DNA from: Alphaproteobacteria bacterium
Lineage (GTDB): Bacteria > Pseudomonadota > Alphaproteobacteria > MPNO01 > VGEU01
Reading direction: 5' to 3'
Length of the DNA: 64,000 nt
Assembly (NCBI GenBank): GCA_016869145.1
Contig: VGEU01000001.1
Coordinates: forward strand, 49,234-113,233
The position numbers were made by a program, and so were the translations under genes. The notes beneath the pieces were generated by a model. It was not told the DNA's origin, made no database searches, and saw only the letters and a list, made by a program, of their open reading frames with translations. How positions within the stretch are numbered: position 1 is the stretch's first letter; each line of letters begins with the position of its first letter. Positions 2,232-61,788 of this stretch are shown here, piece after piece.

Positions 2232-3260
2232 ATGAAGATCACAGGGAGGCTTCCGGCGGCGGCCGCGGCGGCGGCGCTCGTCGCGACGCTCGGGCTCACG
2301 CAGGCGCGCGCCGATACGGCCGCGGACTTCTACCGCGGCAAGACGGTCACGCTCGTCGTCGCCTCGAGCCTCGGCGCCTCGCTCGGGCTCTACGGCCAGC
2401 TCGTCGTCGACCAGATCGGGAAATACATCCCCGGCAATCCGACCGTCATCATCCAGCCGCGTCCAGGCGGCGGCGGCACGGTCGGCGTCGCCCATGTCTT
2501 CAACGTCGCGCCCAAGGATGGGACGGTGTTCTGCCTCATCCTCGCCCCGAGCGTCGTGATGCCGCTCTTCCGCGACGTCAAGTTCGATGCCTCGAAGTTC
2601 CGCTGGGTCGGCTCGATCACGCAGCGCCCGGTGGTCGTCTCGGTGCTCGACAACGCGCCGGCCCGCACGCTCGCGGATGCGAGGAAGACCGAGGTGATCC
2701 TGGGCTCCTCCGGCAAGGGCTCGGAGACCTATCTCGCCCCGGCGCTGATGAACGAGATGCTCGGCACCAAGCTCAAGATCGTCACCGGCTATCAGGGCGG
2801 CGCCGATATCAACATCGCGATGGAACGCGGCGAGGTGCACGGCCGCATGCAGTATTGGGGCGGCTGGACCAGCGTGAAGGCCGACTGGCTCCGCGACGGC
2901 AAGCTCTTCCACTTCCTGCAATACGGGCCGAAGATCGCCGATCTCCCGAACGTGCCGAGCTTCCGTGACCTCGTGAAGACCGACGAGGAACGCCAGATCG
3001 TCGACCTCCTCGAGGTTTCGCCCAATATCGGCATGGCGTTCTTCATGGCCCCCGGCGTGCCCGACGATCGCTACAACGCGATGCGCAAGGCCTTCGAGGA
3101 CCTGATGAAGGATGCGGCCTTCAAGGAGTCCGTCGTCTCCAAGGGGCTCGAGTTCGGCCCGATCGCGGCCGACGAGCTTGCCCGCATCACCGAGCGCGCC
3201 TACCGGACACCGAAGCCGATCATCGAGCGCATGCGCGACATCTTCGGCTTTCCCGGCTGA
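2232..3260 (+). CDS. Periplasmic solute-binding protein, divergent TctC/Bug-like family (paralog 1 of 3)
   Basis: 342 aa with an N-terminal signal peptide (MKITGRLPAAAAAAALVATLGLTQARA). Motifs FYRGKTVTLVV, IPGNPTVIIQPRPGGGG and KIVTGYQGGADINIAMERGEVHG are shared with the paralogs at 5668-6747 and 50076-51113. The PGxGG...DGxT pattern resembles the TctC family. Confidence 0.8.
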   Translation: MKITGRLPAAAAAAALVATLGLTQARADTAADFYRGKTVTLVVASSLGASLGLYGQLVVDQIGKYIPGNPTVIIQPRPGGGGTVGVAHVFNVAPKDGTVFCLILAPSVVMPLFRDVKFDASKFRWVGSITQRPVVVSVLDNAPARTLADARKTEVILGSSGKGSETYLAPALMNEMLGTKLKIVTGYQGGADINIAMERGEVHGRMQYWGGWTSVKADWLRDGKLFHFLQYGPKIADLPNVPSFRDLVKTDEERQIVDLLEVSPNIGMAFFMAPGVPDDRYNAMRKAFEDLMKDAAFKESVVSKGLEFGPIAADELARITERAYRTPKPIIERMRDIFGFPG

Positions 3261-3317: not shown

Positions 3318-5411
3318 TCAGATCAGGTTGAGATAGAAGATCGAGCGGAGGCCCGGGAAGAGATCCCCCAGAAGCGTCTGCGGCCATGGCTGGACCAGGA
3401 TCAGATGGAACAGCACGTAGACGAAGATCCAGACAGGCACCACGATCTTGAGCGTCGTCACCAGGCTCTCTTTGCCCTGGATGTGCATGTAGGCGATCAG
3501 ATAGACGAGCATCCCCGGCAGGATCCCGATCGTCGCGGCGATCGCGAGATAGCCGAGAAGCCAGGCGAAGAACGCGAAGGTGCGCCCCCAGAACTGTTGC
3601 TTGGTGAGGCTGCTGTAGTCGGTCTGGAGGTCGAGGTGGCCGGTATCGACCTGCTGCTGGCGACGCGGATCGAAGGCGAGGAACGCCTCCTTGGGCTTGT
3701 CGGCCGGCACATCGCCGCGCACCGGCTTGAACAGAAACCCGATCGCGAGCATCGCGACGGTGAAGACGACGCCGGACCACGCGATCACCTGCGGCACGAG
3801 CCGCGCGCCGAACTCCCAGCCGCGCGAGGACCACAGCGCATAGGCGAAGAACAGGAACACGAGGAACGTGAACACGAGATCGGGCGAGATATTGCCCGGG
3901 CTCCAGCGCAGCCGGGGCCCGCCGCTGCCGCGCGCCATGAACGAGCGGATGATCGGCGACAGGATGCCGTAGAGCGTCAGCAGCAGCATGACGACGACGA
4001 CCGGCCGCCACATCCAGCTCGCGCCATAGCGCTCGACCGAGATGAACATGTAGCGCTCAATCAGGCCGCCCAGGATGAATCCGAGCAGCATCGGCGGCCG
4101 CGGCCATTTGAGAAGCTTCATGATCCAGGCGAGCACGCCGATGCCGAGGAGAACATAGAGGTCGCCCCACGACTTCGAGCCCTCCATCGCGCCGATATAG
4201 GTGATGCCCATGATCAGCGGCACGAGGATGCTGGCGCGCACCAGCGCGAGCTTGGCGAGCTGGTTGGCGAAGAAGAAGCAGATGCCGGCGCCGAAGATGT
4301 TGGCGACTGCGATCGACCACACCAGCGTGTAGGTGATGTTGAGATTCTTGGTCAGCATCTCCGGACCCGGCACGATGCCGTGGATCAGGAAGGCGCCGAG
4401 AATGAGGGCCTGCGAGGCCGATCCGGGCACGCCGAAGGCGACCGTCGGAACGAGCGCGCCGCCCTCGCGAGCGTTGTTGGACGCCTCGGAGGCGATCACG
4501 CCGCGGATATCGCCGCGGCCGAAGGTCTCCTGCGCGCCTTTCTCGGTCCGGGCGGCATGGCCGTAGGCGATCCAGTCGACGACCGAGGACGACATGCCGG
4601 GGACGGTGCCGAGGCCTGCGCCTATCGCCGAGCAGCGGCACATCAGGAACCAGTGCTTCATCACGTCCTTGAAGCCCTCAATCTGGGCCGCCTTGGTCGT
4701 GATCATCGCCTTCTTGGCAACCGTCGACTGGGTGATCGCGAGATCGGCGATCTCGGGGATCGCGAACACGCCGAGGGCGATCGGGACGACGGAGAGCCCG
4801 TCCCAGAGATAGAGGGTGTCGAAGGTCCAGCGCAGCGTTCCCGTCTGCGGGTCGTCACCGACGGTCGCGAGCAGGATGCCCATCGCCGCGGCCGAGAGGC
4901 CCTTGAGCGGCGAGGAGCCGCTGAGCACGGCGACCAGCGAGAGGCCGAACAGGCAGAACGACAAGAGCTCCGGCGAGCCGACCAGGAGCACGATCGGCCG
5001 GAGCACCGGCACGAGAAGGCCGAGGAGGAGCGCCCCGAACAGCCCGCCGAGAACCGACGCCCCGAAGGCGGCGCCGAAGGCACGGCCGGCCTCGCCCTTG
5101 CGCGCCAACGGATAGCCGTCGAGCACGGTCGCGGCACAGCCGACGCTGCCCGGGACCCCGAACAGGATCGCCGGAATGCTGTCGGAGGTGACGTTGACCG
5201 CGAGCACGCCCACCATCATCGCGAGCGCCGCATAGGGGTCCATGTCGAAGGAGAACGGCAGGAGGATCGACAGCGCGACGATGCCGCCGATGCCGGGGAC
5301 GATGCCGACGAAGAGGCCGATCGCGACGCCCAGCACCAGGAAGACGAGCCGGGGCGGATCGAACAGGATGCCGAGGGCCGTCAGCGCGGAACCCAGCATG
5401 TCGACTTCCAT
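3318..5411 (-). CDS. Tripartite tricarboxylate transporter large permease (TctA family) with a C-terminal TctB-like small-permease extension (fused TctA-TctB)
   Basis: Start chosen at MEVDMLGSALT (M46 of the 742-aa ORF; RBS GGAGAGG). The TctA signature GIVPGIGGIVALSILLPFSF is present. About 500 aa of TctA-like TM helices are followed by about 200 aa of an extra hydrophobic 4-TM domain. Confidence 0.8.
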   Translation of the reverse strand: MEVDMLGSALTALGILFDPPRLVFLVLGVAIGLFVGIVPGIGGIVALSILLPFSFDMDPYAALAMMVGVLAVNVTSDSIPAILFGVPGSVGCAATVLDGYPLARKGEAGRAFGAAFGASVLGGLFGALLLGLLVPVLRPIVLLVGSPELLSFCLFGLSLVAVLSGSSPLKGLSAAAMGILLATVGDDPQTGTLRWTFDTLYLWDGLSVVPIALGVFAIPEIADLAITQSTVAKKAMITTKAAQIEGFKDVMKHWFLMCRCSAIGAGLGTVPGMSSSVVDWIAYGHAARTEKGAQETFGRGDIRGVIASEASNNAREGGALVPTVAFGVPGSASQALILGAFLIHGIVPGPEMLTKNLNITYTLVWSIAVANIFGAGICFFFANQLAKLALVRASILVPLIMGITYIGAMEGSKSWGDLYVLLGIGVLAWIMKLLKWPRPPMLLGFILGGLIERYMFISVERYGASWMWRPVVVVMLLLTLYGILSPIIRSFMARGSGGPRLRWSPGNISPDLVFTFLVFLFFAYALWSSRGWEFGARLVPQVIAWSGVVFTVAMLAIGFLFKPVRGDVPADKPKEAFLAFDPRRQQQVDTGHLDLQTDYSSLTKQQFWGRTFAFFAWLLGYLAIAATIGILPGMLVYLIAYMHIQGKESLVTTLKIVVPVWIFVYVLFHLILVQPWPQTLLGDLFPGLRSIFYLNLI

Positions 5412-5620
5412 GAACCTCTCCCCGTTCCTGGCTGTGGCCATAGCCCTCTCGGCGGGACCTTTGGTCGGCGTCGATGTCGCCGTCGCGTATGGTCGCGCGC
5501 CGTTTTTGCGGCTCGCGATCCGAGCCGAAACACCCAGCGCTGTCAATACGCGGATATGAACGGCCCGGCGCTGCGACGTTCGGCGTCACCGGTCCAGGGC
5601 CCGCCGCGCGGCCCCGATCC

Positions 5621-5671
5621 GGGTCAGGTCACCGGGTCATGTCACCGGGCAAGATCACCGGGTCATGTCAC
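5621..5671. repeat. Short direct repeats (TCACCGGG x3; GGTCATGTCAC x2) overlapping the stop codon of the binding-protein gene and lying in the 256-nt gap before the tctA-like gene
   Basis: Sequence gggtcaggtcaccgggtcatgtcaccgggcaagatcaccgggtcatgtcac read directly. Confidence 0.6.
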
Positions 5672-6747
5672 TTGCGGCCGATCGCCTGCTTCACCGCGGC
5701 CTTGGCCTCCGGCGAGGTCTTGGCGAGCTGGGCGAGATAGCTCCGCCCATCCTCGGGGCTCACGAGCTCCGGCTGCACCCCGATCACCCGCACATGGTCG
5801 TCGAGGAAATCCTTGTCTTTCATGAGTGAAACAAACGCCTTGTAGAGCTCGTTTATGGGCTCCGCCGGCGTGTTGGGCGGCATCAGTATGCCGCGCGACA
5901 GCCGCGTCGAGACGTCGGTAATAACCCGGTAGGCCTCGTATTGCGGGCCGGACGGCTTCTTACCGTGCGCCTCGGCGTAGACATCGGCGAAGGATTTGAT
6001 CCCCTGCCGCTCGTGCTCGGCGCTGCCGATCTCGCGGCCGTCGGGCGTGGAGACGCCATAGACCCACATCGGCATCGCGTGGCCGGGCCGGATCAGGTTG
6101 GGAAGCACCTGGCTGTAGAACGCGGGCGCCGAGCTCGATGTGAAATTGATCTCGCGCCGCTCCATCGCCTGGTTCACCTCGCCCGCCGACTGGAACCCGG
6201 TCACGACCTTGAACTTGGCGCCCATCATGTCGAGCGTGAGATGGAGCCGGACATCGTGGTTCGAGGACGCGGCGTAGCCGGCGGCGAACACATCGAACCC
6301 TTTCGCCATGTCGGCGGGTTTGGCGATCCCCGGCTTGATGTCCTTCCGACCATAAGCGACGATCCAGCCGCCGAGACCGGCGACGAGCCCGAACTTCTCG
6401 TACGGCACGCGGAGCACCGGGTCGTCGACCATCGGGGCGATCGGGTTGAGCGTGACGAACCCGACGGTCAGCCCGTCCGGCTTGCCCAGCACCCCCATCC
6501 CGAGCTGGTTGATCGCCGACATGCCCCCGGCACCTGCCACGTTCTGAACGACGATGGTGGGATTGCCCGGGATGTGCTTGGCCAGATGGCGGACATAGAC
6601 GCGCGCCTCGGTGTCGATGTTGCCACCGGCGCCGTAGTTGACGACGACGGCGAGGATCTTGCCCTCGTAGAAATTGGCCGCGTTCGCGGGGCCGGCCATT
6701 GCAGCCAGCACCAACGCGAACGCCAGTACCGAACGACGCTTGGTCAT
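5668..6747 (-). CDS. Periplasmic solute-binding protein, divergent TctC/Bug-like family (paralog 2 of 3)
   Basis: 359 aa with signal peptide MTKRRSVLAFALVLAAMAGPANA. Motifs FYEGKILAVVV, IPGNPTIVVQNVAGAGG and KVVTGFQSAGEVNQAMERREI. It lies upstream of the fused tctA-like gene on the same strand. Confidence 0.85.
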   Translation of the reverse strand: MTKRRSVLAFALVLAAMAGPANAANFYEGKILAVVVNYGAGGNIDTEARVYVRHLAKHIPGNPTIVVQNVAGAGGMSAINQLGMGVLGKPDGLTVGFVTLNPIAPMVDDPVLRVPYEKFGLVAGLGGWIVAYGRKDIKPGIAKPADMAKGFDVFAAGYAASSNHDVRLHLTLDMMGAKFKVVTGFQSAGEVNQAMERREINFTSSSAPAFYSQVLPNLIRPGHAMPMWVYGVSTPDGREIGSAEHERQGIKSFADVYAEAHGKKPSGPQYEAYRVITDVSTRLSRGILMPPNTPAEPINELYKAFVSLMKDKDFLDDHVRVIGVQPELVSPEDGRSYLAQLAKTSPEAKAAVKQAIGRK

Positions 6748-6810: not shown

Positions 6811-7983
6811 CTAGTCCGGCCAGGCCTCCAGAAGCTCGATCGGCTCGCCGTACTGGCGCGCGGCCTTGATCACGCGCTCGGTCCGGAGCGCGGTCAGGAA
6901 GCCGTCCCGGATCAGGACGTTGTTTCCGGCCGTGACGGTCGAATCGAGGCTGATGAGGTCCATGTGGACCGGCGGCTCCTCCCAGTGCGGAATCACCTTC
7001 TTGACGTACTCGGAGGGCTTGGCGAGCTCGATCCCCCAGTGCAACGCGCCGGTATTGTTCGAGCCCGCGGGATAGATGCCGGTGCGCGGCGCTTTCGGGT
7101 TGAAACCGCAGCCGAGCTCCTGCAACACGCCGCCGACCAGCATGTCGCGGAGGATCTCCGCCTCCTTCGAGCGTCCCTCGACGCGGGTGATCTTGTCCTT
7201 CTCGAAGATGACGGCGATCTTTTCCTTGAACGGCTCGGGGAAGCCGACCGCCCATTGCGGATAGAACACGCCCTCGACGTCGTTGACCGCGTGCTTGTCG
7301 GCCTTGGTCTGGCGGTCATAGACATTTGGCCCGTGCGTCGGCAGCCAGTGGACATAGGCGCCGGGCTCGTCCGCCGTCATGTGGCCGCGCCAGCGCGTCT
7401 GATCGAGCATCCGGTTCCGCATGTCGGGGGTGAACCGCGCCCGCCAGTCGGAACCGCGCGGATCGGTGATCTTCAGCTCGAAGTTCTCGTTCTCGGGATA
7501 CATGTCCCGCGTGGCGCGGATGATCTCTCCGACGAGATCGACCGGGAAGCGTGCCTGCGGCGTCTTCAGCATGTCGAGATTGCGGAAATACGTGATCTTG
7601 ACCGAGCGCTGACCGGTGTCGCGGCGGACCTTGAGGCAATAGTCGTCGCCGATCGAGGCGAACCAGGTCGTGACGACGAATGTCGCCTTCTCATAGGCCT
7701 GCTTGAGCTCGTCGGGAAACACGCCGGAGTTCCAGTCGTGGCGCATGTACTCGTCCGGCTGCACGCCGCGAGCCCGGCAAAGCCCGCGGATCGCGTGGAA
7801 CACGCGCGGATCGATCAGCGGGTCGGACAGGAAGACGACCTTGTCGCTGGGCCGGATCGCGAACACCTTGTTGAAATTGTCGATCGCCTGGAAGTACTCG
7901 GCGACGCGGGTCGTCTCGAACGGATTGGGCGGCGTGATCGCCGTCCCCATGATCTTATGCTGGTCGACCGGATATTCGATCAT
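6811..7983 (-). CDS. Hypothetical protein, M29 aminopeptidase-T / NicX (2,5-dihydroxypyridine dioxygenase)-like fold (tentative)
   Basis: Start at MIEYPVDQHK (M60 of the 449-aa ORF; RBS GGGAG; 4-nt ATGA overlap with the upstream ykgJ-like gene). The C-terminal region (GSNNTGALHWGIE ... VHMDLISLD) resembles the GxNxS/TxxHxD metal-site pattern of the M29/NicX family. This is a weak assignment made from memory. Confidence 0.5.
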   Translation of the reverse strand: MIEYPVDQHKIMGTAITPPNPFETTRVAEYFQAIDNFNKVFAIRPSDKVVFLSDPLIDPRVFHAIRGLCRARGVQPDEYMRHDWNSGVFPDELKQAYEKATFVVTTWFASIGDDYCLKVRRDTGQRSVKITYFRNLDMLKTPQARFPVDLVGEIIRATRDMYPENENFELKITDPRGSDWRARFTPDMRNRMLDQTRWRGHMTADEPGAYVHWLPTHGPNVYDRQTKADKHAVNDVEGVFYPQWAVGFPEPFKEKIAVIFEKDKITRVEGRSKEAEILRDMLVGGVLQELGCGFNPKAPRTGIYPAGSNNTGALHWGIELAKPSEYVKKVIPHWEEPPVHMDLISLDSTVTAGNNVLIRDGFLTALRTERVIKAARQYGEPIELLEAWPD

Positions 7984-8387
7984 CGCTTGCTCCCGATGCC
8001 CTTGGTGACGGACTGACGGTCGTGCGGCTCGCCCGCTTCGCGCGGGTCGAGGAGCTTGTAGCGGCGGGCGAGATCGTGACCGGCCGCGCGCGACAATGGC
8101 TCGAGTGGCCCGCGACCGTGCGGGCAACGCATGTCCTCGACGGCGCCGAACAATCGGCACATGAACGGTCGTCGATCGTGGATATCACAGCGGCCCTGGA
8201 GCGACAACGGGCAGCGCCCGTCGTCGGGGAGCGCGGGCACCGCGTCGAGACCGCCGCGGCGGAGCTCGTGCGCGGTCCACGGCACCGGCCCGCAGCAATC
8301 GGTGCAGCCCTCGATGCAGATGAAGGACGGGATCTTCTTGTACAGGCGCTCGTGGCGCTTCGCGTCCCTCGCCCGGTCGGCCATCAT
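7980..8387 (-). CDS. YkgJ-family (UPF0153) CxxCxxCC zinc/iron-sulfur cluster protein
   Basis: 135 aa; the CIEGCTDCC motif (CxxCxxCC) plus additional Cys residues. It is translationally coupled to the downstream gene. Confidence 0.7.
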   Translation of the reverse strand: MMADRARDAKRHERLYKKIPSFICIEGCTDCCGPVPWTAHELRRGGLDAVPALPDDGRCPLSLQGRCDIHDRRPFMCRLFGAVEDMRCPHGRGPLEPLSRAAGHDLARRYKLLDPREAGEPHDRQSVTKGIGSKR

Positions 8388-8451
8388 CGCCCCCCTCGCC
8401 GGTCGAGGCGACGGCGACCGCCGCGCGCCCCGGTCGCGTATGCCCTCCCGG

Positions 8452-9690
8452 TCACGCAGGCGGCTTGTAGCTCGGAAACCGCTCGCTGACGTCGAGGTTG
8501 AACAGCCGTCGCGCGTTCTCGCCGAGGATGTTGCGCTTGGCCTTCTCCGACAGGAACGGAAGGTCCCATACGGTGTTGGGCAGATCCATATCCCAGTGCG
8601 GATAGTCGGAGGCGTAGAGAAGTTGCGTCTCGGCGTTGATGGCCCGGAACGTCGCCTCGAGGAGGTAGGTGTCGTTGGCGTGGTCGGGCCGTTCCATCGG
8701 CTGGGTCGTATAATACATCTCGCGCATGTATTCGGACGGCAGCCGCTTGAGCGAGGGACACTCCGAGGAACGCATGCGGAACTCGGTGTCGATCCGCTGC
8801 ATCAGCCACGGCACCCAGGCGATCCCCGACTCGATCCAGATCGTCTTGAGCTTCGGGAACCGCTCGGGGAGCCCGTTGACCACCCAGTTGGTGCAGTGGA
8901 CGACATTGTGCCAGGTGAAGCCGAGGGCGTGGACGGCGATGAAGCGGTTGCAGTTCTTGAGCAGCGGATCGTCCCAATTGAAGCCGGAATGGAATCCGAT
9001 CGGCTTGCCCATCTCCTCGCAGAGCGCATAGATCTTCATGTAGTCGTTGTCGTGGATCGGCTTGTGGCGGACCGTCGTCACCATGAAGCCGATGACGCCC
9101 GGGCAGTCGCCGAAGTCCTGGACCATCCGATAGGCCGCCTCGTGGTCGTTGAGCGGGAGGAACAGCATGGTCTTTATGCGCGACGAGCCGGGCAGGACCT
9201 TCTCGACGAGCCAGCGGTTATAGGCGCGCGCCAGGTTGGCCTCGACCTCGGCCTGCGGGTGCATGGCGAGACCGAGCATCGGGGTCGGGAACATGCAGGT
9301 GTAGTCGACGCCCATCGCATCCATCCAGCGATGGGTCAGATGGACGTCGCGGTGGCGGCCGTCCTTGGGCGTCGGCTCGATCCGGCGCAACGGATAGCGC
9401 GTGACGCGCCCGCCGATGTCCTGATAGCCGACGCGGCCCATCGAGAACATGCCACCGCGCTGGTTGACCAGGCGGCTCGCCTCGGCGAGCTGCTTGAGGA
9501 CCGGGTCCTCGATGAACTCGATGATCTCGCCGTAGGAATCGCTCTCGTAATGGTGCGAGTCGACATCGATGATCAGGACGTCCTGGAACTTCCGCTCGTC
9601 GCGTTGGCGCGCGGCATTGGCGAGGAGCGTCGTGGTGTCGAAGCTCTCGACACTGTGCTTGTAGTACTGCTCGCTGGTCGGAAGGTCCAT
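8452..9690 (-). CDS. Amidohydrolase_2 (ACMSD/LigW-type metal-dependent decarboxylase/hydrolase family) protein
   Basis: 412 aa. The N-terminus has IIDVDSHHYES, an internal HSGF motif and a C-terminal SDYPHWD motif, all typical of PF04909 amidohydrolase 2. Confidence 0.85.
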   Translation of the reverse strand: MDLPTSEQYYKHSVESFDTTTLLANAARQRDERKFQDVLIIDVDSHHYESDSYGEIIEFIEDPVLKQLAEASRLVNQRGGMFSMGRVGYQDIGGRVTRYPLRRIEPTPKDGRHRDVHLTHRWMDAMGVDYTCMFPTPMLGLAMHPQAEVEANLARAYNRWLVEKVLPGSSRIKTMLFLPLNDHEAAYRMVQDFGDCPGVIGFMVTTVRHKPIHDNDYMKIYALCEEMGKPIGFHSGFNWDDPLLKNCNRFIAVHALGFTWHNVVHCTNWVVNGLPERFPKLKTIWIESGIAWVPWLMQRIDTEFRMRSSECPSLKRLPSEYMREMYYTTQPMERPDHANDTYLLEATFRAINAETQLLYASDYPHWDMDLPNTVWDLPFLSEKAKRNILGENARRLFNLDVSERFPSYKPPA

Positions 9691-9803
9691 GGCTCTCTCC
9701 CCGGGTCCTGGGCTCGGCGCAGTCTAGTGCAGGATGCCGCCGGAACGGAACGGGCCGCCGACTGTCGCCGGCGGCCCGCCTCGATCACGGTCGCATGACC
9801 GCT

Positions 9804-10790
9804 TTACTTCGTCAGATTGGCCTTGAGCGCGATCTCGCGAAGCTCCTTCGCACCGTCCGCGCAGCACTGTTTGGTCACTTCCCACAGGCTCTCCGACCAC
9901 ACCTTGTTGATGAGGTCGATCTTGTCCTTGGGCAGCATGACGTCCTTGACGCCGAGCTTCATGAGCTCGTCGTCCTCGAGCTTCTGGATCGCATCGCCTT
10001 GGGCGGGCATCTCCTTCTCGAGGCGGAGGCCGACGTCGAGGAGGATCTTCTGCTCCTCGGGCTTCAACCGGCCCCAGCGGGCGAGGTTGACGAAGATCGG
10101 CACGTTCGAGGTGCCGAAGGTCGGCCGCATGCGGAACTTCGCGACCTCGAAATGCTTCATCGTGAGCATTCCCGCGGCCGGCCAGGCCGCGCCGTCGATC
10201 ACACCCTTCTCGAGCGCCGTGTAGATCTCGCCGCCGGGCAGCACGACCGGCGAGCCGCCGAGCGCCCGGATGACACCGTGATAGCTCTGCGTGCCGCGGA
10301 CCTTGCGGCCCTTGAAATCGCCCTCGGCCGTGAGCGGCTCCTTGAGGAAGATGTGGTAGCCCTGGTTGCTGCTCGCCGGCAGGCTGACGAGCTTCAACCC
10401 GTGCTGCTTCTGATAATACTGGTCGATGAAGTTCCACACCCCGGCCGAACGGCGCTTATCGACATCATACTCGATGGCATCCATGACCAGCGCGATGCCC
10501 TTCGCGCCGGCATGGTAGACGCCGTGGGTGAAGAGCATGTCGAAGACGCCCGACGTCACGGGCTGGAGCTGCTGGAACGGCGGCACCACCTCTTCGGAGA
10601 AGATCTGGATCTCGAGCTGCCCCTTCGAGGTCTCGGCGACCCATTTCTGGTAGTTGTCGATCGGCACGTAGGTCGGCCAGTTGTTCTTGCCCCAGCTGCT
10701 CAGGAGCCGCAGCTTGGTCTGGGCGTCGGCCGACATTGGCAGGCCCACGAAGATGCAGAGCGCCAGTCCCAGCGCCAGCAGACGTCGCAT
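9804..10790 (-). CDS. TRAP transporter substrate-binding protein (DctP family), tandem copy A
   Basis: Start at MRRLLALGLALCIFVGLPMSADA (signal peptide) inside the 569-aa ORF. It is about 75% identical to the copy at 10880-11866 (RGTQSYHGVIRALGGSPVVLP and AAWPAAGML are shared). Confidence 0.85.
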   Translation of the reverse strand: MRRLLALGLALCIFVGLPMSADAQTKLRLLSSWGKNNWPTYVPIDNYQKWVAETSKGQLEIQIFSEEVVPPFQQLQPVTSGVFDMLFTHGVYHAGAKGIALVMDAIEYDVDKRRSAGVWNFIDQYYQKQHGLKLVSLPASSNQGYHIFLKEPLTAEGDFKGRKVRGTQSYHGVIRALGGSPVVLPGGEIYTALEKGVIDGAAWPAAGMLTMKHFEVAKFRMRPTFGTSNVPIFVNLARWGRLKPEEQKILLDVGLRLEKEMPAQGDAIQKLEDDELMKLGVKDVMLPKDKIDLINKVWSESLWEVTKQCCADGAKELREIALKANLTK

Positions 10791-10879
10791 CGTATTCACT
10801 CCCTGTTGGTCATATCGCGATGGTCCGCAGTCTAACCATGTGACCGCGGGCCGTACAATATCGGTCTCGGCGGTGGCCG

Positions 10880-11866
10880 CTACTTGGTCATGCCCGCCTT
10901 GAGCGCGATCTCGCGGAGCTCCGGCGCGCCGTCGCCACAGCACTGCTTGGCGAGCTCCCAGAGGCTCTCCGACCAGACCTTCTTCACGAGCTCCGCCTTC
11001 TCCGGCGAGAGCTGGAGGTCCTTCACGCCGAGCTTGGCGAGCTCGACATCCTCGTTCTTGAGGATCGCATCGCCGAGTGCCGGCATCTCTCGCTCGAGCC
11101 GCAGCCCGGCGTCGAGCAGAACCTGCTGCTCGGCCGGCGTGAGCGTGCCCCATTTCGCGATGTTGATCAGGATCGGCTCGTTCGAGGTGCCGAAGGTCGG
11201 CCGGACACGGAACTTCGCGACCTCGTAGTGCTTCATGCTGAGCATGCCGGCCGCCGGCCAGGCCGCTCCCTCGACGACACCCTTCTCGAGCGCGGTGTAG
11301 ATTTCGCCCGGCGGCAGCACGACCGGCGAACCGCCGAGCGCCCTGATGACGCCGTGATAGCTCTGCGTGCCGCGGATCTTCCGTCCCGCCCAGTCGCCGG
11401 CCGGAGACAGCGGCTCCCTGAGAAAGACGTGGTAGCCGTGATTGCTGGCCGCCGGTATGGCGACGGCACGCAGGTTGTGGTGCCGCTGGTAGTAGCGGCT
11501 GACGAACTCCCACACACCCGAGGCGCGCCGCTTGTCCGGATCGTGGTCGATCGCGTCGAGGACGAGCGCGATGCCCTTGGCGCCGGCGTGGTAGACGCCG
11601 TGGGTGAAGAGCATGTCGAACACGCCGGAGGAGACGGGCTGGAGCTGCTGGAACGGCGGCACGACGTCGTCGGCAAAGATCGTGATCTGGATCGCGCCCT
11701 TGCTCATCTCGTGGACGTATTTCTGGTAGTAGTCGACCGCCGCATAGGCCGGCCAGTTCGTCTTGTTCCAGCTCGACAGCAGACGGAGCTTGGTCTGGGC
11801 GTCGGCGCTCGACACGGCGCCGAACAGAACTGACAACACGAACCCCAACGCGATGATGATCCTCAT
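10880..11866 (-). CDS. TRAP transporter substrate-binding protein (DctP family), tandem copy B
   Basis: 328 aa with signal peptide MRIIIALGFVLSVLFGAVSSADA. It is a paralog of the 9804-10790 gene. No DctQ/DctM genes are in the window. Confidence 0.85.
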   Translation of the reverse strand: MRIIIALGFVLSVLFGAVSSADAQTKLRLLSSWNKTNWPAYAAVDYYQKYVHEMSKGAIQITIFADDVVPPFQQLQPVSSGVFDMLFTHGVYHAGAKGIALVLDAIDHDPDKRRASGVWEFVSRYYQRHHNLRAVAIPAASNHGYHVFLREPLSPAGDWAGRKIRGTQSYHGVIRALGGSPVVLPPGEIYTALEKGVVEGAAWPAAGMLSMKHYEVAKFRVRPTFGTSNEPILINIAKWGTLTPAEQQVLLDAGLRLEREMPALGDAILKNEDVELAKLGVKDLQLSPEKAELVKKVWSESLWELAKQCCGDGAPELREIALKAGMTK

Positions 11867-12014
11867 GATGGCGCTCCCCGAATCCGAACCGTCACGGTCG
11901 CCGACAGTTTAGCCGTTCGGCCGGTTTGCGCAATTCGCGATCGGCCCGGCCGCTTGCCCGCCTCCGCCGCCGCCGATAAGGTCTCGCCACCGGAACGCAG
12001 AGGGAGCAAGAACA

Positions 12015-12776
12015 ATGGCAAAGCCCGTCACCCGCATCGGCACGCCGACGTCGCGCACCGACGTCCTCAAGATGCGGGGCAAGGACACGCTCAGCGATAT
12101 CGTCGGCAAGCGGTCCTTCACCGAGACGTTCTATTTCATCGTGACCGGCAAGCTGCCTAATGCCATGCAGACCAAGGTCTTCGACGCCTGTCTGATCATT
12201 CTGATGGATCATGGCATCACGCCCAACGCGCTGGTCGCGCGGATGGTCGAGGAAGCCTGTCCGGAAGACGTCCAGATCCCGATCGCGGCCGGGCTCCTCA
12301 TGGTCGGCAACAAATATGCCGGCACGATGACCGGCGCGGCGGTGATGTTGAGCGAGGGGATCAAGGCGCCGGACCACCGGGCCTGGGCGGCCGACTATGT
12401 CGCCAAGGCGCGCGCCGCCAAGCGACGGATCGCGGGCTTCGGCCATCCCTATTATTTCCCCGACGATCCGCGCGCCGCGCGCCTGTTTGAGGTGGCGCGG
12501 GAAGCCGGTGTCGATGGAAAATACATACGGCTGATCAAGCTGGTGAGCGAGGAGATCGACAAGGGCGGCAAGCACCTCACGCTCAACGTCACCGGGGCGA
12601 TGGGCGCCCTTCTCTGCGAGATCGACTTCCCGATCCCGGTCATGCGCGGCGTCTCGGTGATCGGACGCGCGGCCGGCCTCGTCTCCCACATCTACGAGGA
12701 GAAGACCAACGGCAACGCGGTCGCCAACGCGGTCATCGACCTCGTCAACAACGTCGAGTATCAGGACCCGGCATGA
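12015..12776 (+). CDS. Citryl-CoA lyase-like protein (short citrate synthase-family protein)
   Basis: 253 aa. The GFGHPYYFPDDPRA motif matches the citrate-synthase catalytic region (GFGHRVY..DPR). Its length fits the citryl-CoA lyase subfamily. Confidence 0.65.
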   Translation: MAKPVTRIGTPTSRTDVLKMRGKDTLSDIVGKRSFTETFYFIVTGKLPNAMQTKVFDACLIILMDHGITPNALVARMVEEACPEDVQIPIAAGLLMVGNKYAGTMTGAAVMLSEGIKAPDHRAWAADYVAKARAAKRRIAGFGHPYYFPDDPRAARLFEVAREAGVDGKYIRLIKLVSEEIDKGGKHLTLNVTGAMGALLCEIDFPIPVMRGVSVIGRAAGLVSHIYEEKTNGNAVANAVIDLVNNVEYQDPA

Positions 12777-12783
12777 CGGCGAC

Positions 12784-12806
12784 GGGGCGGGCCATCGGCC
12801 CGCCCC
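12784..12806. terminator. GC-rich hairpin (GGGGCGGGCC-atc-GGCCCGCCCC) downstream of the citryl-CoA lyase-like gene
   Basis: Perfect 10-bp inverted repeat with a 3-nt loop, seen directly. Confidence 0.5.
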
Positions 12807-12808
12807 GG

Positions 12809-12888
12809 CCTTGTTTCCCGGCTGGCCTCATTTCCCGGCTGGTCTTATTTCCCGGCCGGCCTTGTTTCAGGAGCCTTATTTCAGGAGG
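12809..12888. repeat. Five tandem ~14-17 bp degenerate repeats (CCTYRTTTC + CCGGCYGG or AGGAG). The last unit contains the GST stop codon.
   Basis: Sequence ccttgtttcccggctgg cctcatttcccggctgg tcttatttcccggccgg ccttgtttcaggag ccttatttcaggagg. Confidence 0.7.
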
Positions 12889-13481
12889 CCTTCGGCTTTC
12901 ATCGCCTCCTGCACCTTCGGCCGCGCGCCGACGCGGGCGTGGTAGTCCTTAAGACGCTGGTCGTTGATCTCGACGCCGACGCGCGCGCTCCAGTTCATCA
13001 CCGTGAACAGATAGGCATCGGCGACCGAGAAGTTCTTCCCCATCAGGTAATCCTTGCCCGCGAGCTCGCCCGAGATATAGGCGTAGCGCTGCGCGAGCCG
13101 CTCCTTGACGGTCGCCTTCACAGAATCGGGCGCCGTCGGGTTGAAGAGCCACGAATAGTTCTTGTGGAGCTCCGAGGTGATGAAGTTGAGCCACTCCTGC
13201 ACGCGGTAGCGCTCGACGGTGCCGTTCGTCGGCGCGAGCCCGGACTGCGGCGCCTTGTCGGCGAGGTACTGGACGATCGCGGGGCCCTCGGTGAGGCGCT
13301 GACCGTCGTCGAGCTCGAGCGTCGGCACATAGCCCTTCTTCGAGATCGCCGTGTAGTCGCCGCCGTCCTCCATCTTCCTGGCGCGGATATCGACCTTCAC
13401 CAGCGACACCGGAATCCCGGCCTCGCGCATCACGATGTGCGGCGACAGCGAGCACGCGCCGGGTGAGTAATAGAGCTTCAT
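12876..13481 (-). CDS. Glutathione S-transferase
   Basis: Start at MKLYYSPGACS (strong RBS AGGGAGGAAG). The GST N-terminal thioredoxin-like motif and C-terminal helical domain are present. Confidence 0.85.
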   Translation of the reverse strand: MKLYYSPGACSLSPHIVMREAGIPVSLVKVDIRARKMEDGGDYTAISKKGYVPTLELDDGQRLTEGPAIVQYLADKAPQSGLAPTNGTVERYRVQEWLNFITSELHKNYSWLFNPTAPDSVKATVKERLAQRYAYISGELAGKDYLMGKNFSVADAYLFTVMNWSARVGVEINDQRLKDYHARVGARPKVQEAMKAEGLLK

Positions 13482-13515
13482 CGCTTCCTCCCTCTTGCTG
13501 CTTCGATCGATCCAG

Positions 13516-15867
13516 TCACGCACGCTTGGCCGCCTTCAACGCGGCCCAGATCTTGGCCGGCGTCGCCGGCGTGTCGAGATGGGTCACGCCGCGGGTCGCG
13601 AGCGCATCGAGCACGGCGTTCATCACCGCCGGCAGCGAGCCGGCATTGCCGCCCTCGCCGCAGCCCTTGACGCCGAGCGGATTGGTCCGCGCCGGCACCG
13701 CATGGGTCGAGAACGCGAAGCTCGACAGCGTATCGGCGCGTGGCATGGCGTAGTCCATGTAGGACCCGGTCAAAAGCTGGCCGTCTTCGTCGTAGACGGC
13801 GCCTTCCATCAGCGCCTGGCCGGCGCCTTGGGCGATGCCGCCGTGCACCTGTCCCTCGACGATCAGCGGATTGAGCATGGTTCCGAAGTCGTCGACGACG
13901 GTGTAGCGCAGCATGTCGACCTCGCCCGTCTCAGGATCGATCTCGACCTCGCAGGCATGGCAGCCATTGGGATAGGTCGCGGGCGCGGTGTCGTGCGCGA
14001 GCGCGACGTCGAGTGACGTCGGCAGGCCCTCGGGCACGGTCGCGAGCGTCTTCACCTTCTGGGCCAGCGCGATCAGCCCGATGGTGCGGTCGGTGCCGGC
14101 GACGTGGAACGCACCGCCCCGATACTCGATGTCCTCGACCGCCGCCTCGAGCACGTGTGCGGCGAGCTTCTTGCCGTTCTCGATCACCTTCTCGGAGGCG
14201 GCGAGGATTGCGGTGCCCGAATGGATCGCCGATTTCGATCCGCCCGAGCCGCCGCCGATCACCATCTGGTCGGAATCGTCCTGGCGGACCGTGATGCGGT
14301 CGAACGGAACCTGGAGCTTCTCGCAGAGGATCTGGGCGAAGGTGGTCGCGTGCCCCATGCCGAAATCCTTCGAGCCGGTCCACAGCGTGACGGTGCCGTC
14401 GGGCTCGAAGCGGATGTCCGCGAGCTCCTTGCCGGGCGGCGCGGTGAGCTCGAGATAGGCGCCGATGCCGAAGCCGCGGAGCCGGCCGCGGGCTTCGGAC
14501 TCGCGCCGGCGCGCGGCGAATCCCGCCCGGTCGGCGCGCTCCATCGTCTTGTCGAGGACAGCGACGAAATCACCCGAGTCGTAGGTCATGTCGAGCGGCG
14601 TCTTGTAGGGCATCTGATCCCGCCCGATCAGATTGCGTCGCCGCAGTGCGACCGGGTCGCTCCCGGTCTCGCGCGCGGCCTGATCGATCAGCCGCTCGAG
14701 GATGTATTTCGATTCGGGCCGCCCCGCGCCGCGATAAGGCCCGGTCGGCACCGTGTTGGTCATCACGCATTTCATCGCGACGGCGACCGCCGGCGTCTTG
14801 TAGACGCTCACGATATTGCGGCTCAGCACGTTGGTCGGCGGCGCCGGCCCCATCGAGGTGAGATAGGCGCCCATGTTGCCGTGCCCGGTGATCCGGATCG
14901 CGAGGAAGTTCCCGTCCTTGTCGAGGGCCAACGCGGCATCGACGATGCTGGCCCGCCCCTGGTGATCGGAGAGGAAGCTCTCGGTCCGGTCGGCACGCCA
15001 CTTGACCGGCCGCATCAGCTTGCGCGCGGCATAGAGCACCGAGACGGATTCCGAATAAGGCTGGCCCTTCATGCCGAACGACCCGCCGACGTCTTGGCTG
15101 ACGACGCGGAGCTTCTTGGGATCGATCTTGAACACGCTCTGGGCGATGTTGTTGCGGAGCCCGAACACACCCTGCGAGCCGGTCCAGAGCGTCATCTTGT
15201 CCGACGCGGCGTCATAGGTCGCGAGCGCCGCGCGGGGCTCCATCGCGTTGACGACGACGCGGTTGTTGTCGAGGCGAAGCCGCGTGACGTGCGCGGCCTT
15301 GGCGAAGGCGGCGTCGACGGCCGCCGGATCGCCGAGGAGCCAGTCGAGGCAGACATTGTTCGGCATCTCGGGGTAGATCTGCGGCGCGCCGGGCTTCGCC
15401 CCTTCGACCGCATCGGTGACCGCCGGCAAGGGCTCGATCTCGAGCACGACGAGCTCGGCCGCATCCTGCGCCTGGTCGCGCGTCGCGGCGACGACAACGG
15501 CGACCGCGTCGCCGACATGGCGGACCCGGTCGACGGCGAGCGCCGGCCGGTGCGGGATGATGAGGGGCGAGCCATCGCGGCTCTTGAGCGGCACGACGCA
15601 GGGGAAGCCGCCGAGGCCATCGGCCGCCATGTCGGCGCCGGTGAAGATGTCGACCACCCCCGGCGCGCGTTTCGCCGCCGCGAGGTCGAGCTTTCGGATG
15701 AGCCCGTGCGCCACCGTCGAACGGACCATGACGGCGTGAACCTGGCAGGGCAGGCTCTCGTCGTCGGAATAAAGCCCGCGCCCGGTGAGGAGCCGGGGGT
15801 CCTCGGTGCGGCGGACCGGCTGGCCGATGCCGAAGCGGACGAGATCCAGGGCGCTGTCGTCGGGCAT
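13516..15867 (-). CDS. Xanthine dehydrogenase family molybdopterin-binding large subunit (orphan, no adjacent FeS/FAD subunits)
   Basis: 783 aa, N-terminus FGIGQPVRRTEDPRLLTGRGLY, with GGSFG, GAGRPES and QVHGGIAQG motifs. Confidence 0.9.
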   Translation of the reverse strand: MPDDSALDLVRFGIGQPVRRTEDPRLLTGRGLYSDDESLPCQVHAVMVRSTVAHGLIRKLDLAAAKRAPGVVDIFTGADMAADGLGGFPCVVPLKSRDGSPLIIPHRPALAVDRVRHVGDAVAVVVAATRDQAQDAAELVVLEIEPLPAVTDAVEGAKPGAPQIYPEMPNNVCLDWLLGDPAAVDAAFAKAAHVTRLRLDNNRVVVNAMEPRAALATYDAASDKMTLWTGSQGVFGLRNNIAQSVFKIDPKKLRVVSQDVGGSFGMKGQPYSESVSVLYAARKLMRPVKWRADRTESFLSDHQGRASIVDAALALDKDGNFLAIRITGHGNMGAYLTSMGPAPPTNVLSRNIVSVYKTPAVAVAMKCVMTNTVPTGPYRGAGRPESKYILERLIDQAARETGSDPVALRRRNLIGRDQMPYKTPLDMTYDSGDFVAVLDKTMERADRAGFAARRRESEARGRLRGFGIGAYLELTAPPGKELADIRFEPDGTVTLWTGSKDFGMGHATTFAQILCEKLQVPFDRITVRQDDSDQMVIGGGSGGSKSAIHSGTAILAASEKVIENGKKLAAHVLEAAVEDIEYRGGAFHVAGTDRTIGLIALAQKVKTLATVPEGLPTSLDVALAHDTAPATYPNGCHACEVEIDPETGEVDMLRYTVVDDFGTMLNPLIVEGQVHGGIAQGAGQALMEGAVYDEDGQLLTGSYMDYAMPRADTLSSFAFSTHAVPARTNPLGVKGCGEGGNAGSLPAVMNAVLDALATRGVTHLDTPATPAKIWAALKAAKRA

Positions 15868-47060: not shown

Positions 47061-47279
47061 CGTCGCGCTCTCCCTTGGTCGATGCGAGCCGCGTCGGTAT
47101 GGCGGCGGCCCTGGCAGCCAGTCCAACTCATGTTCTCGAAGGCCGGACTATAACGTCTCATCGGCCTCGGGCAACGCCAAACGGCCGGCGATCGGCCGCG
47201 CCGAGCCGATCAAGTTGACTCGCTCAAGCGGCCCCTGCGATGGTGGCGACGCCGCCAACCGACAAGCTTGGAGTTCGCC

Positions 47280-51113: not shown

Positions 51114-51159
51114 GCCTGTCCGACACCGGCCGCGACAACCGCAGAAAGGAGCCCGGACC

Positions 51160-61711: not shown

Positions 61712-61788
61712 GCCCCGCCCTTCGTCCCGCCGGTGGTCTGATGCCACGGCGCATTGTACGGTGGCCGCCGCGTCGGGAGGAAGAACGC

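Follow-up and report, generated by a model that had tools for sequence, protein, structure and literature searches.

An unannotated sister family of NicX, paired with a YkgJ-type protein, in a composite alphaproteobacterial gene cluster

The window analysed here, a 64,000-nucleotide stretch of an alphaproteobacterial contig, contains a run of minus-strand genes that had been described from the letters alone as a five-gene ring-processing operon: two DctP-type binding proteins, a PF04909 protein, a small cysteine-rich YkgJ-type protein, and a 390-aa protein, here called X390 (Table 1). All five ORFs were confirmed with their coordinates and strand. Their GC content at third codon positions (GC3, 0.85–0.91) is typical of real genes in 67% GC DNA, and a GGAG-type ribosome site precedes each start. 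In gene order from 11866 to 6811 the gaps are 89, 113, 64, and −4 nt, the last being an ATGA overlap between the YkgJ gene end and the X390 gene start that is read directly in the sequence. No minus-strand terminator-like sites were found between 11866 and 5600, and the co-directional run is longer than previously described, extending through the genes for a Bug/TctC-family binding protein (63-nt gap) and TctA (256-nt gap). The two DctP paralogues are 71% identical; no DctQ or DctM membrane subunits of a DctPQM TRAP transporter were found among the window genes scanned. As had also been noted, the window is rich in N-heterocycle-type genes; it encodes Mo-hydroxylases and UbiD and carries one gene resembling QPRTase and another resembling isochorismatase.

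Table 1. Features of the gene cluster and its flanks (positions in the window)
Feature	Position	Strand	Evidence
TctA-family membrane transporter	3318..5411	-	PF01970, 406 bits
Four tandem 13-nt units, TGACATGACCCGG-like	5619..5670	-	pattern matching
Divergent Bug/TctC-family periplasmic solute-binding protein, signal peptide	5668..6747	-	BugE 2DVZ, E 1.4e-6
X390, 390 aa, unannotated NicX sister family (M29 clan)	6811..7983	-	profile and structural match
YkgJ-type protein, 135 aa, PF03692	7980..8387	-	24.0 bits against a cut-off of 23
ARO-type protein (amidohydrolase-related dinuclear oxygenase), PF04909, 412 aa	8452..9690	-	PF04909, 84 bits; ARO motifs
DctP-family (TRAP-type) solute-binding protein, paralogue 1	9804..10790	-	PF03480, NF037995; start refined
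DctP-family solute-binding protein, paralogue 2	10880..11866	-	PF03480, NF037995
Citryl-CoA-lyase-like (CitE-like) gene, divergent from the cluster	12015..12776	+	NF004868, 271 bits

The best match of X390, by structure and by profile alike, is the 2,5-dihydroxypyridine 5,6-dioxygenase NicX (also Hpo or PicD; PDB 7CN3), which is clearly nearer than any peptidase. The M29/NicX resemblance first noticed at the C-terminus is real, but the two-domain fold spans the full length of X390, all 390 aa. Homology to NicX is detectable in sequence with profiles only, and an ADEPG..HW motif is common to both proteins. A Pfam scan of X390 gave no matches at E ≤ 0.01, M29 (PF02073) included, and identity to the M29 aminopeptidases (AmpS, AmpT, PepS) is about 12%; a distant X390 relative, P0220, reaches 24.5 bits against PF02073, below the cut-off. 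The family is large: it has more than 1,100 sequence clusters and members in 282 species genomes of Proteobacteria from soil, freshwater, and the sea, the named hosts being aerobic Alpha-, Beta-, and Gammaproteobacteria. Until now NicX has counted among the non-heme iron dioxygenases as an isolated subclass without close structural relatives. The X390 family, labelled “hypothetical” in every source, can now be placed beside it: it is an unannotated, widespread family and the closest known relative of NicX, a real and new sister with a new partner.

We take the ligands of the M29 two-metal site to be Glu253, Glu319, His348, His381, and Asp383, with positions read off the PepS alignment. The last four align with E289, H315, H340, and D342 of X390, whereas Glu253 aligns with Tyr210 in the profile alignment and the acidic residue preceding His348 becomes Asn. 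These four X390 residues are invariant or nearly so in the family and its distant relatives, and are the predicted metal ligands. In NicX the Fe(II) ligands are His265, Ser302, His318, and Asp320, each essential by mutagenesis (PMC7910607). The H-x-D metal motif is kept, H340 and D342 aligning with H318 and D320 in the profile alignment; His265 and Ser302 are replaced by E289 and G317, and an extra invariant His, H315, sits at the position of Leu300. As for the residues that bind substrate in NicX (Glu177, His189, and His105; PMC7910607), His189 aligns with the invariant H212, His105 is replaced by I111, and the Glu177 region is gapped, with an unreliable alignment there. With different residues at two of the four NicX iron-ligand positions, the NicX-type dioxygenase step proposed in the sequence-only reading is not established for X390, and the match of E289 and H315 to M29 peptidase ligands leaves room for a hydrolytic or binuclear site. 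With a ligand set between peptidase and dioxygenase, the family lends itself to asking how an oxygenase arose from a hydrolase scaffold.

The commonest neighbour of X390 is a TctC-type solute-binding protein (SBP), present in 44 of the 85 loci analysed, window included; among operonic neighbours, a binding protein is the only one to recur from one X390 clade to another. The binding protein encoded beside X390 shares 24% identity, along its entire length, with a canonical TctC of the window, and its orthologues (46%–50% identity) adjoin X390 in four loci (L012, L018, L030, L086). A solute-binding protein as constant companion sets X390 apart from NicX, as does the YkgJ partner in one clade, and ligand screening of the SBP would be a direct way to find the substrate. 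Many X390 loci consist of just the binding protein, X390, and a GntR regulator, and, as a difference from NicX, downstream enzymes of the NicD/NicF/NicE type do not recur beside X390 in the X390 loci; such an arrangement fits one-step hydrolysis to central metabolites better than ring cleavage. Elsewhere in the family, X390 has as operonic neighbours soxBDAG-like (sarcosine-oxidase-like) genes at a 4-nt gap (L001), a DMGDH-like gene (L020, L031, L058, L087), a HyuA-HyuB (hydantoinase/oxoprolinase) fusion (L050, L066), DHDPS-like and OCD-like genes, and, in L085, GGT, Amidohydro_3, and D-Ser-dehydratase-like genes. The Sox-like, DMGDH-like, and hydantoinase/oxoprolinase neighbours, found in other clades, suggest amino-acid-derivative chemistry.

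This neighbour pattern, which recalls the creatinine/hydantoin-to-sarcosine route or related ones for amino-acid derivatives, joins the short binding-protein loci and the four retained M29 positions in favouring a metallohydrolase. X390 would then hydrolyse an imported N-substituted amino-acid-like carboxylate, as an M29-style amidase, peptidase, or carbamoyl-hydrolase, and YkgJ would be an accessory, for metal or Fe-S handling or for a separate step, required in one clade only. We regard this reading as possible but somewhat unlikely, given the missing Pfam M29 match, the loss of Glu253 and of the acidic position ahead of His348, the closer kinship with NicX, and a redox-type Cys-rich partner that would be unexpected for a hydrolase. 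The M29 aminopeptidases are housekeeping peptidases, whereas X390 occurs with solute transporters. An oxygenase is weakly favoured over a hydrolase.

The sequence-only reading had joined all five genes in a single operon; on such a model a DctP-imported pyridine carboxylate would undergo ACMSD-type decarboxylation and then NicX-like cleavage. The shared direction, short gaps, and lack of a detected terminator-like site between the genes agree with this, as do the Mo-hydroxylase, UbiD decarboxylase, QPRTase-like, and isochorismatase-family genes of the window; the Alcaligenes pic pathway likewise joins a PF04909 decarboxylase and a NicX homologue (bioRxiv 10.1101/530550). The PF04909 protein of the window, however, has the motifs of AROs, and its best matches are AROs. 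The best PDB matches are 8SM7 (E 2e-39), SfbO, AibH (AibH2), and PtmU3, all AROs, against E values of 2e-8 to 4e-6 for the decarboxylases LigW, gamma-resorcylate decarboxylase, and ACMSD. The ARO signature combines an N-terminal D-x-H on strand 1 with a C-terminal D-x-P-H-x-[D/E] that has at least 200 residues before it (PMC13154177). Both motifs are present: IIDVDSHH aligns with IIDVDVHN of 8SM7, and DYPHWD, at about residue 361 of 412 (index 372 of the stop-to-stop ORF) and so at least 200 residues in, aligns with SDYPHWDFD. On these motifs and matches the protein is assigned as an ARO-type enzyme, and an ACMSD/LigW-type decarboxylase was rejected; annotation from the Pfam name alone had misled the pathway reading. 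The gene differs from those of known AROs in lying amid two DctP genes and TctA without a Rieske ferredoxin neighbour, and no coding Rieske-motif ORF was found in the window or in 80 ARO orthologue loci. It would add a transporter-linked, Rieske-less subgroup to the newly defined oxygenase superfamily.

Synteny divides the run in two. The closest ARO orthologue loci have the order DctP-DctP-ARO-TctA with nothing between; TctA, a conserved neighbour there alongside two DctP genes, lies 1270–1390 nt past the ARO start, directly after ARO, in L092–L096, the DctP genes are conserved upstream of ARO in L093, L095, and L096, and the CitE-like gene holds an equal relative position in L091, L093–L095, and L097. 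X390 and YkgJ are found in none of the 80 ARO loci, and neither ARO nor DctP genes lie beside X390 in any of about 84–90 X390 loci. From the order in the orthologous loci, the YkgJ, X390, and binding-protein genes are therefore a 2.9-kb inserted module, and the region combines two modules, the second of which interrupts the first between ARO and TctA. The 13-nt repeat units start at the binding-protein stop codon, at the edge of the inserted module; their pattern has three exact matches where 0.1 are expected and occurs nowhere else in the window. Module 1 comprises the divergent CitE-like gene followed by DctP, DctP, ARO, and TctA, an arrangement conserved elsewhere; in it, transport proteins would be paired with a dinuclear (Fe/Fe or Mn/Fe) hydroxylase that activates O2 and has the amidohydrolase-2 fold. 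The second module runs from about 8451 to 5547, with YkgJ, X390, and the Bug-type binding protein. With orthologous loci that carry the cluster without the X390 module, and halves that never occur together elsewhere (0/80 ARO loci and 0/84 X390 loci), the five-gene ring-processing operon is largely refuted by synteny and, as a reading of the region, improbable.

The pairing of the NicX-like protein with YkgJ, by contrast with the five-gene grouping, is real and conserved: YkgJ adjoins X390 in all 21 loci of the closest clade, clade A (L005–L019, L030, L085, L086, L171, L172, and the window). The gene order may be either, and YkgJ is a conserved partner of X390 in this clade. It is missing from about 65 X390 loci of other clades. 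Within clade A the YkgJ gene is mostly downstream of X390 and is upstream in the window and in L085. The 4-nt overlap is present here but peculiar to the window, the two genes lying 4–134 nt apart elsewhere, usually in reversed order. The pairwise distances among X390 proteins correlate with those among their YkgJ partners (r = 0.88). The Cys motif reads CxxxCxxCC here and, with four further Cys, makes up eight positions that are invariant in 36 sequences (C24, C28, C31, C32, C59, C67, C77, and C88). No solved structural relatives of the protein were found. The flagellin methylase FliB and phage DpdM also have eight conserved Cys and a motif of the form Cys-x(2-4)-Cys-x(2-3)-Cys-Cys, and in FliB a related motif binds an O2-sensitive [4Fe-4S] cluster (FliB paper); by analogy, YkgJ is probably a [4Fe-4S] protein.

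FliB and DpdM, the two experimentally studied relatives in the CxxCxxCC group, are both N-methyltransferases, and clades without YkgJ have N-demethylating neighbours, namely Sox-like and DMGDH-like proteins and the VanA/LigXa-type Rieske proteins that adjoin X390 there. YkgJ might on these grounds be a [4Fe-4S], SAM-dependent methyl-transfer or demethylating enzyme for the substrate or product of X390, but the prospect is poor: it is a minimal form of just 113–135 aa in which neither a catalytic extension nor a SAM-binding element is evident, the FliB paper likens only the N-terminal Cys motif of FliB to PF03692, and DpdM belongs to a different family, DUF3109. That YkgJ is instead the electron mediator of the neighbouring ARO, in place of the usual Rieske ferredoxin, is very improbable: AROs depend on a reductant from outside, their genes often adjoin that of a small Fe-S protein, the YkgJ gene lies 64 nt downstream of ARO, and the window has no Rieske-motif ORF, but neither YkgJ nor a small Rieske ORF occurs in any of the 80 ARO orthologue loci, and YkgJ tracks X390, not ARO.

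The account we tentatively prefer is that of two modules, with X390 as an Fe(II)-type oxygenase, YkgJ as its [4Fe-4S] helper, and a TTT-imported acid as substrate. In this account module 2 resembles a self-contained unit for uptake and conversion, in which the periplasmic Bug protein would capture a carboxylated solute, a TTT membrane protein (TctA is immediately downstream here) would import it, and X390, as a cytoplasmic metal enzyme, would convert it. E289, H315, H340, and D342 may hold a mononuclear metal in X390, most likely Fe(II), and the enzyme may use O2 to cleave or oxidise an N-heterocyclic or aromatic acid that carries a hydroxyl group, with the small [4Fe-4S] protein YkgJ keeping the X390 metal reduced or supplying electrons. 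The XylT-type ferredoxins, plant-type [2Fe-2S] proteins, reactivate extradiol dioxygenases, and YkgJ could be their functional analogue, as in each case the gene of a small Fe-S protein would lie beside, and be dedicated to, a non-heme-iron ring-cleavage enzyme. XylT is unrelated to YkgJ, an eight-Cys PF03692 protein, and the analogy is functional only. The more specific proposal that X390 and YkgJ form a new two-component redox enzyme, a non-heme-metal oxygenase on the M29/NicX scaffold with a Glu-His-His-Asp site and YkgJ as dedicated electron donor or reactivase, its substrate being a heterocyclic or aromatic acid brought in by a TTT system, is doubtful as it stands; if true, it would provide the first metabolic role for the YkgJ family and a second reaction type in the NicX lineage.

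Counting against the preferred account, most of the X390 family operates without YkgJ, one YkgJ homologue, 59% identical, is encoded without X390 (L173), and homologues at greater distance are found in phage or mobile-element settings. The strict pairing in clade A is a tractable handle on YkgJ, a very widespread protein family of obscure role.

The window has a GC content of ~67%, and its genuine genes are recognisable by a GC3 of 0.85–0.91. Seven of them form an unbroken co-directional run on the minus strand, from 11866 down to 3318. The sequence-only reading had placed five genes here, and their coordinates and strand are correct, but the run does not end with them, as genes for a second kind of binding protein and a TctA-family membrane protein follow. 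Every start in the run is preceded by a GGAG-type ribosome-binding site, and the successive gaps from DctP paralogue 2 to TctA are 89, 113, 64, -4, 63, and 256 nt. No terminator-like site was found on the minus strand from 11866 to 5600, and the genes of this composite cluster may be co-transcribed in the window organism.

Genes of the minus-strand run and its two flanking genes (window positions)
Gene	Position	Strand	Remarks
CitE-like (citryl-CoA-lyase-like) gene	12015-12776	+	divergent from run
DctP paralogue 2	10880-11866	-	
DctP paralogue 1	9804-10790	-	refined start; 71% identity with paralogue 2
PF04909 protein (ARO)	8452-9690	-	
PF03692 Cys-rich protein (YkgJ)	7980-8387	-	135 aa
390-aa protein (X390)	6811-7983	-	
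Binding protein with signal peptide	5668-6747	-	359 aa
TctA-family membrane protein	3318-5411	-	
TctC gene	2232-3260	+	converges on end of run

The run had also been read as one five-gene pathway, a decarboxylase followed by a dioxygenase in a single operon. Comparative evidence gives this no support, as the half containing X390 and the half containing the PF04909 gene (ARO, for amidohydrolase-related dinuclear oxygenase) never co-occur elsewhere. We fetched 80 metagenomic loci of ARO relatives and searched them with all window genes; X390 or YkgJ was found in none (0/80), and none of the 84 X390 loci has ARO or DctP genes. The seven loci with the closest ARO orthologues (L091–L097, 70%–76% identity) have DctP genes directly upstream of ARO (L093, L095, and L096), TctA directly after it, beginning 1270–1390 nt past the ARO start (L092–L096), a divergent CitE-like gene upstream (L091, L093–L095, and L097), and a convergent TctC gene downstream (L092 and L093). 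This is the arrangement of the window minus YkgJ, X390, and the 359-aa protein. The last is a divergent Bug/TctC binding protein (E-value 1.4e-6 to BugE, 2DVZ; 24% identity to canonical TctC over its full length), and its orthologues, at 46%–50% identity, adjoin X390 in L012, L018, L030, and L086. Because ARO loci occur without this 2.9-kb segment (~8451–5547) and the orthologues of the 359-aa protein adjoin X390, the segment is an independently conserved three-gene module inserted in the ARO–TctA intergenic region.

No convincing direct or inverted repeats were found at the two ends of the module. The sole feature is at one edge, where the 256-nt gap before TctA contains four tandem 13-nt units (5619–5670, minus strand; TGACATGACCCGG-like) that start directly at the TGA stop codon of the 359-aa binding-protein gene. 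The pattern is absent from the rest of the window (three exact matches versus 0.1 expected), and the array could be a regulator-binding array or an insertion scar. The TctA ORF has ~250 residues outside its Pfam domain. Two DctP (TRAP-type) binding proteins are kept beside TctA (TTT-type) in the window and in L092–L096, and the window genes scanned included neither DctQ nor DctM; the DctP pair and TctA may form a hybrid transporter.

The PF04909 protein had been read as an ACMSD-family, decarboxylase-type amidohydrolase. Its closest solved relatives are instead 8SM7 (E-value 2e-39), SfbO 8SM6, 8SM9, AibH (6M1W/8FUL), 8SM8, and PtmU3, with LigW, gamma-resorcylate decarboxylase, and ACMSD matching at only 2e-8 to 4e-6. 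AROs were described by Rittle and co-workers as O2-dependent enzymes that hydroxylate C-H bonds and use Fe2 or Mn/Fe cofactors (PMC10811679), and a 2026 analysis gives their signatures as an N-terminal D-x-H and a C-terminal D-x-P-H-x-[D/E], both missing from every characterised PF04909 hydrolase or decarboxylase (PMC13154177). The window protein bears both (IIDVDSHH and DYPHWD), which, with the far better matches to AROs, replaces the decarboxylase reading by that of an oxygenase-type enzyme, an ARO. It differs from known AROs, whose usual neighbour is a Rieske ferredoxin, in having none in the window; the ferredoxin is likewise absent from all 80 orthologue loci. A second PF04909 protein (61741–62925, plus strand) is clearly ARO-related and has degenerate motifs (GYPQWN for D-x-P-H-x-D, and no D-x-H), recalling AibH1, the non-catalytic partner of AibH2. 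Tandem ARO paralogues lie 1.2–2 kb apart in L102, L104, L106–L109, L112, L123, and L135, which suggests AibH1H2-like heteromers in this ARO subfamily.

Neither Pfam nor NCBIfam has a match to X390. A collection of 5.8 billion proteins contains 1135 relatives (E ≤ 1e-3), and all those with names are labelled 'hypothetical protein', as they are in a second large homologue search with a broadened profile (A2). Relatives are present in 282 of 185,579 species genomes, nearly all Alpha-, Beta-, and Gammaproteobacteria, with hosts among Polaromonas, Pigmentiphaga, Variovorax, Ottowia, Devosia, Rhizobium, Acetobacteraceae, and marine lineages. The family is tight, with 54%–74% identity to the window protein and ~110 invariant columns. 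Paralogue pairs (48%–53% identical to the window protein) lie within 5–10 kb of one another in L030, L057, L062, and L069, and in L030 each paralogue has its own TctC-type binding protein.

The sequence-only reading had proposed that the C-terminus of X390 resembles the M29 aminopeptidase/NicX fold. PepS is among the PDB matches of its AlphaFold2 model (pLDDT 85, pTM 0.85), at about 5e-7. Profile A2, built from the family and distant relatives collected by an exhaustive HMM search, matches NicX over its full length among PDB sequences (E-value 2e-13), and PepS at 1e-3; the single sequence and the family-only profile (A1) gave nothing significant there, and two distant relatives used as queries (P0220 and P0155) gave no informative match. 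Hence the resemblance is present, and it covers both domains rather than the C-terminus alone.

The NicX iron ligands are His265, Ser302, His318, and Asp320, each of them essential, and its substrate is bound by Glu177, His189, and His105 (PMC7910607). We took residue correspondences among NicX, X390, and M29 (PepS) from the profile A2 alignment. The M29 ligands are given their usual numbers (Glu253, Glu319, and His348), with positions from the PepS alignment. X390 keeps the NicX pair H318/D320 as H340/D342, the conserved H-x-D (VHVD) of M29, and H189 as the invariant H212 within the common motif ADEPG..HW. It differs from NicX at H265, replaced by E289 (M29 Glu319), and at S302, replaced by G317, and has gained an invariant His, H315 (M29 His348), at NicX L300. 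It differs from the M29 peptidases at Glu253, where Y210 leaves the fifth M29 ligand unmatched. E289, H315, H340, and D342 are still conserved in relatives at 21%–28% identity, and the most economical reading is a Glu-His-His-Asp metal site, intermediate between those of the peptidases and of NicX. Because the defining NicX ligands, which we tested, are only partly matched, we do not file X390 as NicX; it represents a sister family within the clan of NicX.

The Cys-rich protein scores only just above the PF03692 cut-off (24.0 versus 23 bits). Its C-x3-C-x2-CC motif and four further Cys make eight, all invariant in 36 homologues. We searched 84 loci of X390 relatives by tblastn with every window cluster gene and scanned their ORFs for the Cys motif. 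YkgJ lies beside X390 in 21/21 loci of clade A, defined by an X390 identity of ≥64% to the window protein (L005–L019, L030, L085, L086, L171, L172, and the window), and in none of the ~65 loci of other clades, where the motif scan ruled out concealed divergent copies. The pairing is obligate in clade A. In most loci, a binding-protein gene comes first, followed by X390 and then YkgJ, with the latter two 4–35 nt apart (134 nt for L012); YkgJ precedes X390 in the window and its nearest relative, L085. The ATGA overlap of the two genes, from which co-translation had been proposed, is seen directly in the sequence, but is peculiar to the window. Adjacency outlasts the change in gene order, and the divergences of the two proteins are correlated (r = 0.88 over 91 pairs), which argues for a functional link. 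A few conserved positions flanking the active-site motifs separate clade A from the other clades (A109/C, W213/Y, E319/D, T127/W, and R159/A), which fits a clade-specific adaptation accompanying YkgJ.

More distant YkgJ homologues were considered as further partners of M29-like proteins and rejected; those at 37%–46% identity (tblastn; L088–L090) lie among ParB, SSB, integrase, and terminase genes without X390, and one 59% identical (L173, 9001–9360) has no X390 within 9 kb. From these contexts, the X390-linked YkgJ proteins seem to form one branch within a family whose other members are common on phages and mobile elements. No structural relative of its model (pLDDT 82.5) was found in the PDB. 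Two relatives of the Cys-motif group have been studied experimentally: FliB, whose related motif holds an O2-sensitive [4Fe-4S] cluster (PMC8598068), and DpdM, a phage preQ1 methyltransferase (PMC10516641). By analogy with these, YkgJ is most likely a small [4Fe-4S] protein.

For 85 loci, we grouped every ORF lying up to 6 kb from X390 by clustering and counted operonic neighbours. A solute-binding protein is the sole partner recurring across clades: a TctC-type protein is near X390 in 44 loci and operonic in 29 (five clades), and an ABC-type one adjoins it in three further clades. A single enzymatic partner common to the clades was sought and did not emerge. GntR regulators are frequent. Clade-specific neighbours include two kinds of Rieske oxygenase (six loci each), a HyuA-HyuB fusion, a GMC oxidoreductase, and genes of DHDPS-like and OCD-like type. 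Outside clade A, a soxBDAG-like (heterotetrameric sarcosine-oxidase-like) operon begins 4 nt after X390 (L001, 9166–14254), and a DMGDH-like DAO-FAO_M-GCV_T gene lies directly upstream in a marine clade (L087, 5484–7919), a hint of chemistry on N-methylated or N-alkylated amino acids in those clades. GGT, Amidohydro_3, and D-Ser-dehydratase-like genes are near X390 in L085. In L171/L172, a widespread X390–YkgJ module sits beside a triazine- or barbiturate-like N-heterocycle context (9389–15141), with an AtzD/TrzD ring-opening amidohydrolase, cyanase, RidA-domain and MOSC proteins, and a TauD-type dioxygenase. Taken with the numerous invariant Arg and Lys residues of the family, these neighbourhoods point to an imported anionic small molecule as what X390 converts.

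We would suggest that a carboxylated heterocyclic or aromatic solute is taken up through the Bug protein and a TTT membrane protein, that Fe(II) bound at E289/H315/H340/D342 lets X390 cleave it oxidatively or oxidise it, and that YkgJ, as a [4Fe-4S] protein, reduces or reactivates the metal centre, much as XylT ferredoxins serve extradiol dioxygenases. As a whole, this scheme has in our view slightly less than an even chance of being right. The oxygenase role within it is a more tentative choice; it is favoured in that X390 is closer kin to NicX, has an Fe-S-type partner, occurs in oxygenase-rich contexts, and is confined to aerobic lineages. X390 could otherwise be a hydrolase, a reading that we consider only a little less probable and that has the amino-acid-derivative contexts and the lack of recurrent NicD/F/E-like follow-up enzymes near X390 in its favour. 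The fold and clan of X390 are already known; the novelty lies in a NicX-sister family that is large, unannotated, and equipped with a hybrid ligand set, and in its pairing with a minimal YkgJ-type protein. Neither is described in the literature searched, in keeping with the earlier view that the pairing is undescribed.

Two tandem 714-aa proteins with only a Hydantoinase_B domain (15955–18099 and 18142–20286, minus strand) have no detected HyuA partner nearby. Taken as a whole, the window resembles a catabolic island for N-heterocycles or aromatic acids. It encodes at least four xanthine-dehydrogenase-type Mo-hydroxylase large subunits (1–2238, 13516–15867, 32764–35520, and 59375–61747), four UbiD-family decarboxylase paralogues (47268–48686, 53693–55204, 55853–57295, and 57376–58884), a quinolinate-phosphoribosyltransferase-like gene (51100–52053), and several TctC genes.
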